A DNA stretch of 64,000 bases from Escherichia phage Turkey3. Below, in pieces: positions 22,200 through 23,754 of the stretch (positions within the stretch are counted from its first letter, which is position 1; each line of letters opens with the position of its first letter). The notes below the pieces were generated by a model that saw only the letters and a list, made by a program, of their open reading frames with translations, was not told the origin of the DNA and did no database searches. Where the stretch lies: sequence record PQ471515.1. One strand, 5' to 3'. Position numbers and translations under genes: made by a program.

Positions 22200-22808
22200 G
22201 TGGTACGATTATGTAAAGAAATCATCCAATCTATTATTATTATTTTCTTAATTAACTTTCCTGCAAGTGCAGGTGTTGAAAGAAAAAGTATCATTAGATA
22301 TGATGAATCTAAACAGACAGTTCAGTTCATTTCAACTTTAACTGAAAATACTGTAAACCGTTTGATGGTTTTTAGAGAAACACACCCATTTGACACTATC
22401 ATCATTACGTCACCTGGTGGTGATTTTGATGCGGGAGTGGCACTAGGAAATTTTGTCAATGATAACAATTTAACAATTATTGTTGAAAGATATTGTAATT
22501 CTTCTTGCACTATCGCATTCTTTAGTGCTAATATAGAAAACAGATACATGATGAAGGACTCAATTCTAGGTCTACATAATGTGTCAATCGAAAGTAAAGC
22601 ACGAAATAGTGATGACACATACATAACAGTTCGCCAAATGACTATTTTTGCAGAACAGCTATCAACTAAGGTTGGTGTTCTATTTGCGTTATATGCAGCG
22701 AATGGTATTCCTCCAGAATTGTTAGTGGAGGTTAGTAAGGTTCGTGGTAATGAAGTTGTGAGACTTACACCAGAGCAGTTGCTCGAATTAGGTAGTATCA
22801 TTCATTAG
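22200..22808 (+). CDS. ClpP/S49-fold serine peptidase-like protein with N-terminal signal peptide
   Basis: GTG start 7 nt after AAGAGGG; hydrophobic N-terminus; ITSPGGDFDAG, CNSSCTIAFF and GLHNV align with ClpP motifs. Confidence 0.5.
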   Translation: MVRLCKEIIQSIIIIFLINFPASAGVERKSIIRYDESKQTVQFISTLTENTVNRLMVFRETHPFDTIIITSPGGDFDAGVALGNFVNDNNLTIIVERYCNSSCTIAFFSANIENRYMMKDSILGLHNVSIESKARNSDDTYITVRQMTIFAEQLSTKVGVLFALYAANGIPPELLVEVSKVRGNEVVRLTPEQLLELGSIIH

Positions 22809-22900
22809 TATTAGATACAAAATAATAATATTATAATAAGAGGATGATAAAGTGGTACATCCTTTGTTATAAGTTAACATACACTAGGAGTGTATAAACT

Positions 22901-23161
22901 ATGACAAATTTACAAAACTTAACATCTCTTGTTTTTTATGCAACAACTATTGTATATTGCATTACATTAGTTTTAACATGTTTCATCTATAAAGACTACA
23001 AACGTGGTTTTATGGATTCCAGTACACACAAATTTGCATCCAAGTTAGAAGCAGGAATTTACTATGTTCTATCAATTTCTTATGGAGCATGTTTACTTAC
23101 ACTAGGGTTGCTGATATACTGGTTGTATACGGCCCTTTTTGCACAAGGAGTTATTTCATGA
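22901..23161 (+). CDS. small membrane protein (two TM helices)
   Basis: ORF; hydrophobic. Confidence 0.5.
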   Translation: MTNLQNLTSLVFYATTIVYCITLVLTCFIYKDYKRGFMDSSTHKFASKLEAGIYYVLSISYGACLLTLGLLIYWLYTALFAQGVIS

Positions 23162-23754
23162 CTTGTATTATCGCTCACACAAATGGCACATCTTCCTTCA
23201 TCGCTGGTGATAAATTAGGAAGCAATGGTTTCACTAAAGCAGTTCAAACTGAGCCTAAAGTATTTGAGAAAGAATTCATTAAAATCAATGATGATGCTGG
23301 TTTGACCCGTACAAAAGAAATTATGGCGTTAGGGTATACTACATCGTTCCGTATGGGTCAGTTGTTGAATTACAACCTAACTCTACCAGAACAAGTTGAA
23401 GGGGAAACCTTTTCACAGTATCTAGTACTGAAAGTTATTCCTATCATTCGTCAAATGTTTAAAGATGAATGGGGTGCTCGTGATGCATCACAAGATGTTG
23501 GTGGTGGTCAGTTCATTATTCTTCATAATCATACGATTTATGAAGTTCAAGAAGACTTTTCAGTACTGCAACCTAAAACACAAATTACTGCTGTCGGAAG
23601 TGGGACTTATCATGCAATTGCATCCATGTCAGCGTATATTGAAGTTCAAGAAGAAACCAATGTTCAGTTACATGAACGTGTTGAGTCTATTTTCAAAATT
23701 GTCAGTGATAATGTAACAAGTGTTAGTCCAGAGTTTGATATTTTGAAATACTGA
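23158..23754 (+). CDS. HslV/proteasome beta-subunit-like Ntn peptidase
   Basis: ATG 23158 after AAGGAG; mature N-terminus TCIIAHTNG...IAGD parallels HslV TTIVSV...IAGD; AVGSGTYHAIASM matches GSG motif. Confidence 0.55.
   Translation: MTCIIAHTNGTSSFIAGDKLGSNGFTKAVQTEPKVFEKEFIKINDDAGLTRTKEIMALGYTTSFRMGQLLNYNLTLPEQVEGETFSQYLVLKVIPIIRQMFKDEWGARDASQDVGGGQFIILHNHTIYEVQEDFSVLQPKTQITAVGSGTYHAIASMSAYIEVQEETNVQLHERVESIFKIVSDNVTSVSPEFDILKY

Follow-up and report, generated by a model that had tools for sequence, protein, structure and literature searches.

A predicted exported ClpP-fold peptidase and a putative proteasome-type peptidase encoded at one locus of an Asteriusvirus-type jumbo coliphage

Phage homologues of the proteasome were catalogued in 2021, and the loop that follows helix H2 was described as the pore loop, which HslV, gated by HslU, has in a short form and BPH in a long one; BPH has no known unfoldase, the long loop is associated with unfoldase independence, and the phage-associated group I homologues are PPH, AAH and CPH (Fuchs, Alva and Lupas, 2021, PMC8665760). 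HslV genes lacking HslU have also been remarked on in a jumbo-phage paper (PMC7823757). Apart from the head proteases, the self-compartmentalising peptidases of phages are almost unstudied. Here, two genes from a 64,000-nucleotide stretch of Escherichia phage Turkey3 (PQ471515.1; hereafter the window, to which all coordinates refer unless another record is given) were analysed: gene A, which encodes a ClpP-fold protein with an export signal, and gene B, which encodes a protein of the proteasome superfamily with the N-terminal nucleophile (Ntn) fold. These are probably two separate accessory peptidase genes, the product of A being exported and that of B being cytoplasmic. Both open reading frames (ORFs) had been proposed in an earlier sequence-only reading of this DNA, and both were found to be genuine genes on the + strand, with homologues in other phages. 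Coordinates are given in Table 1.

On nucleotide identity, the window belongs to the Asteriusvirus-type ("Rak2-like") jumbo coliphages, of approximately 350-380 kb: in megablast searches, the segment 21600-25300 was 98.9% identical to Escherichia phage vB_Ec-M-J (100% query coverage), 98.8% identical to fEgEco12 and Ecwhy_1 and ~77% identical to 121Q and PBECO4. The whole genome of fEgEco12, the closest complete relative, was used for genome-level searches. Peptidase readings of both genes are already present in public annotation (121Q gp473 is noted as "protease (ClpP-like)", as is gp464, and gp475 as "protease (ClpYQ-like)") and PHROGs families exist for both, so that what is reported here on A and B is correct, largely known and of annotation level, and by itself points to no function. 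The genes are not discussed in the Asteriusvirus and Rak2-like phage papers, and literature searches on COG3904 and on phage periplasmic ClpP returned nothing relevant. The new elements are the confirmation of A and B at the level of residues and structure, the placement of A in a large, predicted exported ClpP-fold family, the recognition of B as a distinct lineage, the finding that the genome lacks HslU and ClpX and has a ClpA/ClpS/ClpP set together with another proteasome homologue, and the correction of a database label.

Gene A resembles ClpP (MEROPS S14) in fold and in the arrangement of its conserved residues. The three ClpP-like motifs picked out by the sequence-only reading are present (ITSPGGDFDAG, residues 69-79; CNSSCTIAFF, 99-108; GLHNV, 124-128), and the AlphaFold2 (AF2) model (predicted local distance difference test, pLDDT, 93.5) has the ClpP/crotonase fold, including the handle helix; the Foldseek matches listed were all ClpP (50/50). 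Gene A matched Pfam CLP_protease PF00574 with 21.0 bits, barely above the gathering cut-off of 20.2, and scored 19-22 bits, below threshold, with the NCBIfam ClpP equivalogs (cut-offs 228-251). In PHROGs it falls in phrog_26024 ("protease", E 1.6e-69). Ten close homologues, all from related jumbo phages and 51-98% identical, were obtained by k-mer search, and when a profile was searched exhaustively against 1.84 billion representatives, at least 1495 proteins were returned at E<=1e-3, mostly of 190-300 amino acids (aa), with alignments that often include the N-terminal hydrophobic segment.

The sole invariant residues in 42 diverse family members were S71, G73, G74, C99, S101, C103 and H126, the first three corresponding to the SPGG oxyanion motif of ClpP. 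Ser101 is located where a strand passes into a helix, and His126, 25 residues further on, comes after a strand, which matches the S97-H122 pair (Ser97/His122) of ClpP. Ser101 was assigned from the alignment with the phage ClpP (where it falls on the serine of GYAASMG), from the 25-residue spacing and from the secondary structure; an hhalign alignment of the family to E. coli ClpP displaced the Ser through a 3-residue gap and was set aside. Unlike in ClpP, the Ser is flanked by two invariant cysteines (C-x-S-x-C). A motif census was carried out on 139 representatives of 150-400 aa: CxSxC was present in all 139, SxGG in 138, a His 22-28 residues past the Ser in 136 and a hydrophobic N-terminus in 126, and a lipobox-like site was seen in 26. 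No Pfam model is dedicated to this C-x-S-x-C family, and no publications on it were found.

The hydrophobic N-terminus of gene A, seen in the sequence-only reading, was confirmed (Kyte-Doolittle 15-residue mean of 2.2 over residues 4-26) and can be divided into n-, h- and c-regions as in a Sec signal peptide (MVRLCKEIIQSIIIIFLINFPASA/GVE): R3 and K6 lie in the n-region, the h-region is IIQSIIIIFLINF and the c-region is P-A-S-A, with Ala at -3 and -1. Cleavage is predicted after Ala24, before G25, and F20-P21-A22-S23-A24 is invariant in 11 homologues, though the h-regions of the phage homologues differ. The proposal of an exported peptidase is reasonable, since the ClpP fold and the signal both hold, and the signal would be cleaved rather than kept as an anchor. 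In ClpP, the N-terminal axial-loop region meets the AAA+ partner, whereas in gene A the signal peptide takes its place; the protein is predicted to be periplasmic, unlike ClpP, and for that reason to be ATP-independent. As a predicted ClpP-fold peptidase that works without ATP at or past the inner membrane, gene A is comparable to SppA (S49) and NfeD; it differs from them in being one small domain and in that its family has an invariant His and no invariant Lys, in contrast to their Ser-Lys dyad. Cys99 and Cys103, which flank the presumed nucleophile, may form a disulfide in the periplasm, for which they are natural candidates.

For gene B, the Met-Thr start (MTCIIAHTNG at the N-terminus), the IAGD at residues 15-18 and the GSG-type stretch AVGSGTYHAIASM at residues 145-157 were all present, as first read. 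The mature residues Thr1, Asp17 and Lys33 correspond to T2, D18 and K34 before removal of the Met, and G59 is the equivalent of proteasome Gly47. In 66 diverse members, down to 28% identity, M1, T2, D18, K34, G59, F64, Q68, G147 and V189 were invariant; these include the equivalents of Thr1 and Lys33, which the sequence-only reading had singled out as telling. G59 precedes helix 1, G147 is the first Gly of G-S/C-G, and the Met-Thr start was found in 119 of 120 homologues. The search by k-mer and HMMER yielded 272 homologues, mostly of 175-200 aa and from metagenomic phage-like contigs. The two beta sheets and the four helices of the AF2 model (pLDDT 92.9, predicted template modelling score 0.89) are ordered as in the proteasome; H2 spans residues 85-105, and the model ends with H4 (171-185) and a single strand. 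Foldseek searches of the PDB placed HslV first (E 2.7e-10, template modelling (TM) score 0.63-0.72, 15-19% identity), followed by BPH, with the best TM-scores (0.73/0.78, 13-16% identity), and then by bacterial and archaeal proteasome beta subunits and Anbu. Gene B belongs to phrog_1040 ("peptidase HslV family", E 2.9e-22), and it gave no match to Pfam Proteasome PF00227 at E<=1.

The gene had been called HslV-like. With HslV (ClpQ, MEROPS T1B) it does share the alpha-beta-beta-alpha Ntn fold, the Met-Thr start without propeptide, a length of ~175-200 residues, the lack of a C-terminal H5 helix, and Asp17, Lys33, the oxyanion Gly and G-S-G in register; an end-to-end alignment of the family profile with E. 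coli HslV was obtained (E 5e-10 to 1e-8), again with T1, D17 and K33 in register. Orthology did not hold: gene B scored 18.0 bits with the HslV model TIGR03692 (cut-off 157.75) and 19.0 bits with NF003964 (cut-off 137). Because it lies far below these cut-offs, has a longer pore loop and is encoded without HslU, gene B is classed, on sequence comparison, as a phage lineage apart within the proteasome superfamily and not as an HslV orthologue. In the profile alignment, the loop after H2 is ~6 residues longer in the gene B family than in HslV; the family also has its own motif, GYTTSFRMGQLL, after the oxyanion Gly. In the Asteriusvirus members, a beta-hairpin of ~16 residues (residues ~40-55), which HslV lacks, is inserted between the strands of Lys33 and of the Gly. 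Gene B also resembles BPH and the group I homologues: it is compact and propeptide-less, has no known unfoldase partner and has homologues in bacteria and Caudoviricetes phages, and it shares with group I the absence of the C-terminal S12/H5 elements and the phage distribution. PPH, of ~140 aa and without helix H2, was ruled out by the 198-aa length of gene B and by its H2.

These features can be joined into the following proposal. Genes A and B would form one, probably early, transcription unit within a block of nucleotide-metabolism and NAD-RNA-repair genes. The product of A, carrying a Sec-type signal probably cleaved after PASA, would be exported to the periplasm and would act there as an ATP-independent ClpP-fold serine peptidase, with a Ser101-His126 dyad and the SPGG oxyanion motif; outside the cytoplasm, a Cys99/Cys103 disulfide would be possible. 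The product of B would stay in the cytoplasm, where methionine aminopeptidase would remove Met1 and expose the Thr as both nucleophile and general base; Asp17, Lys33 and the Gly47-equivalent oxyanion glycine would complete a proteasome-type active site. Gene B would most likely form HslV/BPH-like rings and act on peptides or unfolded proteins without a dedicated unfoldase.

Several points weigh against this proposal. The peptidase activity of both products is read from sequence and predicted structure, and the ring assembly and ATPase independence of gene B are deduced from how long one loop is and from the lack of a partner gene, a role that the HslU of the host or the ClpA-type ATPase of the phage could yet fill. 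The N-terminal helix of gene A could be an uncleaved membrane anchor. Gene A further differs from ClpP in having no conserved equivalent of Asp171: at this position (mapped by eye, from sequence and secondary structure) or nearby, no conserved acidic residue was found in the phage subfamily, where R182-G183 is invariant. For gene A, no more than a Ser-His dyad can therefore be claimed, and, for the same reason, the protein may be a weak or specialised hydrolase. Finally, the pairing of A with B is not conserved outside the Asteriusvirus-type phages, and the genes may be unrelated in role: gene A homologues in two other phage contigs (L012, L013) have no gene B beside them, and the ClpP-fold genes that adjoin gene B homologues in L009 and L011 do not belong to the gene A family: they lack signal peptides and score 5-8 bits on the gene A family profile, against 196 for gene A itself. 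Functional coupling is thus unsupported, and the two genes are probably not an obligatory pair.

The question of a partner for gene B bears on a rival in which it is a surrogate HslV, docking on the host HslU hexamer or on a phage ClpA-type ATPase and forming a hybrid ATP-dependent protease that redirects host proteolysis. The E. coli host encodes HslU. The sequence-only reading had stated that no HslU-like ATPase is present in the window, and this was upheld: tblastn with E. coli HslU and ClpX gave nothing better than E 0.4. The search that it had proposed for the rest of the genome was run in fEgEco12, where no HslU or ClpX orthologue was found and the sole AAA+ match was g327, a ClpA-type ATPase; the lineage also encodes a ClpS-like adaptor (g414). 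Across phage records, HslU-like genes were mainly found in Erwinia and Salmonella jumbo phages, with four "Escherichia" records giving any match. The rival can also draw on the alignment of gene B to E. coli HslV along its whole length, in which the catalytic residues coincide, and on the rank of HslV structures at the top of the Foldseek list by E-value. It is nevertheless quite unlikely: identity to HslV is just 15-19%, the score is 18-19 bits where the HslV equivalogs require 137-158, the pore loop is longer than that of HslV, and the family extends to phages of Gram-positive Geobacillus and to T5-like, Vibrio and Aeromonas phages, where no ATPase is a conserved neighbour. In addition, the IG(M) loop of g327 (RSIGMSG), at what we take to be the place of the IGL loop by which ClpA docks on ClpP, is of the ClpP-docking kind and not the HslV kind.

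A more speculative reading, in which a disulfide clamps the serine of a large exported gene A family not described so far, or gene B retargets proteolysis through HslU or the ClpA-type ATPase, is unlikely; either would be new in mechanism. For gene A, the disulfide may clamp the catalytic serine so that the enzyme would be active only after export, and the protein may remodel the host envelope early in infection, for example by removing a receptor or blocking superinfection. Gene B, independently of A, might retarget cytoplasmic proteolysis by joining the HslU of the host or the ClpA-type ATPase of the phage.

Catalytic inactivity or a non-proteolytic role is unlikely for either product or for both; gene A would then be a crotonase-like enzyme or a binding protein, and gene B a connectase-like ligase or a non-peptidase Ntn amidohydrolase. 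Faint matches of gene B to connectase were obtained (Pfam MJ0548_N, E 0.17; PDB 8jtu, E 0.45), but gene B keeps H1 and H2, which connectase lacks, together with the full Thr/Asp/Lys/Gly set; for gene A, the only invariant polar residues are the nucleophile, base and oxyanion motif of ClpP, and ClpP outscores the crotonases well. That gene A is a head maturation (prohead) protease, the product name it bears in the GenBank records of fEgEco12, vB_Ec-M-J and WPEC5, can be dismissed as extremely improbable. In its favour, besides the name, are weak matches to models of ClpP-related head maturation proteases (NF045542 at E 0.011 for gene A, with 31 of 42 family members at E<=0.01). Against it, the NF045542 score is 15.7 where 120 is required, the gene encodes a conserved export signal and is placed in a nucleotide-metabolism block, remote from the head genes, and the lineage has a Peptidase_S77, gp21-type protease (g348) in the head module, whose phAPEC6 counterpart has been detected in virions, so that the label is almost certainly wrong and looks like an annotation-transfer error.

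Two separate accessory peptidases thus remain the preferred reading of A and B. The sequence-only reading had counted three peptidase-fold proteins within about 5 kb, and the span, including the ClpP gene at 18572-19267 (PF00574, E 1.3e-41), was found to be 5.2 kb. This cytoplasmic ClpP probably works with the phage ClpA/ClpS pair, since a ClpA-type ATPase and a ClpS-like adaptor are encoded outside the window; the three would constitute a complete phage-encoded ClpAPS system. The fEgEco12 protein g518 was not detected by tblastn with gene B; it has an MTT start, a Lys at position 34, FMGSGG and a match to phrog_24804, with a weak one to phrog_1040, and because of it the lineage has two Ntn proteasome homologues. 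The lineage carries at least five protease-system components: ClpP, the ClpA-type ATPase with its ClpS-like adaptor, the exported ClpP-fold protein and two proteasome homologues. If active, these would be host-takeover tools, and would offer a tractable E. coli system for orphan proteasome homologues (BPH/AAH/PPH-like) that have no unfoldase.

Table 1. Location of the features described, in the window and in records of the fEgEco12 genome
Feature	Location	Strand	Description
Gene A	22200-22808	+	GTG start, 202 aa; exported ClpP-fold putative serine peptidase
Gene A predicted signal peptide, residues 1-24	22200-22271	+	predicted helix 2-19
Gene A SPGG, residues 71-74	22410-22421	+	conserved
Gene A Cys99	22494-22496	+	conserved
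Gene A Ser101	22500-22502	+	conserved
Gene A Cys103	22506-22508	+	conserved
Gene A His126	22575-22577	+	conserved
Gene B	23158-23754	+	ATG start, 198 aa; putative proteasome-superfamily (HslV/BPH-like) Ntn threonine peptidase
Gene B Thr, codon 2	23161-23163	+	conserved
Gene B Asp18	23209-23211	+	conserved
Gene B Lys34	23257-23259	+	conserved
Gene B Gly59	23332-23334	+	conserved
Gene B G147-S148-G149	23596-23604	+	conserved
ClpP homologue	18572-19267	+	canonical, cytoplasmic, 231 aa; GYAASMG Ser, MCHQV His, DADRD Asp
Intrinsic-terminator-like hairpin	21919-21944	+	11-bp stem then T run; closes upstream dCMP-deaminase/86-aa transcription unit
Sigma-70-type promoter-like site	22037-22064	+	TAGACA-16-TG-TATAAT; 11/12 matches, extended -10; consensus match only
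86-aa ORF	22901-23161	+	two hydrophobic segments; counterpart is 121Q gp474; also conserved in fEgEco12
63-aa ORF	23786-23977	+	two strongly hydrophobic segments; directly 3' of gene B; conserved in fEgEco12
Sir2	23987-24739	+	
Nudt16-like NUDIX	24736-25287	+	
cREC	25297-25617	+	receiver-like domain
Small membrane protein	25614-25916	+	
PIN_4+PhoH	25978-27417	+	
g327	fEgEco12, L018:18077-20365		762 aa; two AAA modules (AAA, AAA_lid_9, AAA_2, ClpB_D2-small); ClpA-type unfoldase
g414	fEgEco12, L020:1795-2340		181 aa; weakly ClpS-like; PHROG named "ATP-dependent protease"
g348	fEgEco12, L019:2848-3468		206 aa; T4 gp21-type prohead protease, Peptidase_S77, E 8e-21; flanked by the genes for portal and major capsid protein
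g518	fEgEco12, L021:5560-6057		165 aa; very divergent second proteasome-like protein

The window has a G+C content of ~35%, and all gene-like ORFs in the 17-29 kb stretch are on the + strand. The local order in fEgEco12 is as follows: DNA ligase, metallophosphoesterase, ClpP (the gene at 18572-19267 in the window), dCMP deaminase, gene A, the 86-aa membrane ORF, gene B, the 63-aa membrane ORF, Sir2, Nudt16-like NUDIX, cREC, a small membrane protein and PIN-PhoH. The sirtuin/Nudix/cREC/PIN neighbourhood has been predicted to be a jumbo-phage system for RNA repair and ADP-ribose (ADPr) processing (Iyer et al., 2022).

Translation starts were supported by a ribosome-binding site for each gene (AAGAGG, 8 nt spacing and GTG for A; AAGGAG, 7 nt spacing and ATG for B), and the GenBank records of fEgEco12 and 121Q use identical starts for both; a longer ORF for gene B, from an upstream ATG at 23089, had no good ribosome-binding site. 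The 86-aa ORF and gene B are probably translationally coupled, because the stop of the former and the start of the latter share ATGA. The promoter-like site lies ~135 nt 5' of gene A. Together, the strong terminator-like hairpin and the near-consensus sigma-70 promoter 5' of gene A, both pattern matches only, suggest that the A-B unit is transcribed early by host RNA polymerase. The 280-bp gap in which they lie (21917-22200) holds only the terminator and promoter-like sites in the window, and reverse-strand genes for Ig-domain (Big_2) structural proteins occupy the matching position in 121Q (L002:5189-5694) and in another jumbo-phage contig (L012:4037-4942); because its content differs in this way, the gap appears to be an indel hotspot.

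In the contig L013 (L013:3533-4762), the gene A family homologue was located two genes 3' of an AAA (PF00004) ATPase of 409 aa, and also near SprT-like, Sir2 and Gad2 genes.

The gene B family was detected by tblastn in 197 phage records, including T5-like Epseptimavirus and Aeromonas, Vibrio, Psychrobacter and Geobacillus phages, under labels as varied as "peptidase HslV family", "proteasome subunit-like protein" and "Ntn hydrolase-like". In annotated genomes, including those of T5-like, Geobacillus and Aeromonas phages, its members lie in nucleotide-metabolism clusters (ribonucleotide reductase (RNR), dihydrofolate reductase (DHFR), ThyA, PhoH, dCMP deaminase), and no conserved ATPase or other partner was found beside them in the neighbourhoods compared. 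The ATGA overlap with the upstream gene recurs in three unrelated contigs (L003:5090-6004, L005:4754-6004 and L007:5333-6004); the upstream proteins are unrelated among L003, L005, L007 and the window, being respectively Gp23-like, unknown, a member of phrog_12193 and the 86-aa membrane protein. The L003 protein, of 304 aa, bears a weak likeness to Gp23-type major head proteins (phrog_138, E 1.2e-6). In L005, a contig of a Myxococcota metagenome-assembled genome (MAG), the gene B homologue comes after ParA and three unknown genes, in surroundings that do not clearly belong to a phage. A small membrane protein is also encoded just upstream of the gene B homologue in a T5-like phage (L023:3594-3902). 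In Aeromonas phage 2L372X, two adjacent "peptidase HslV family" genes were found (L024:4001-4552 and across the record start), whose products could form a hetero-oligomeric ring.

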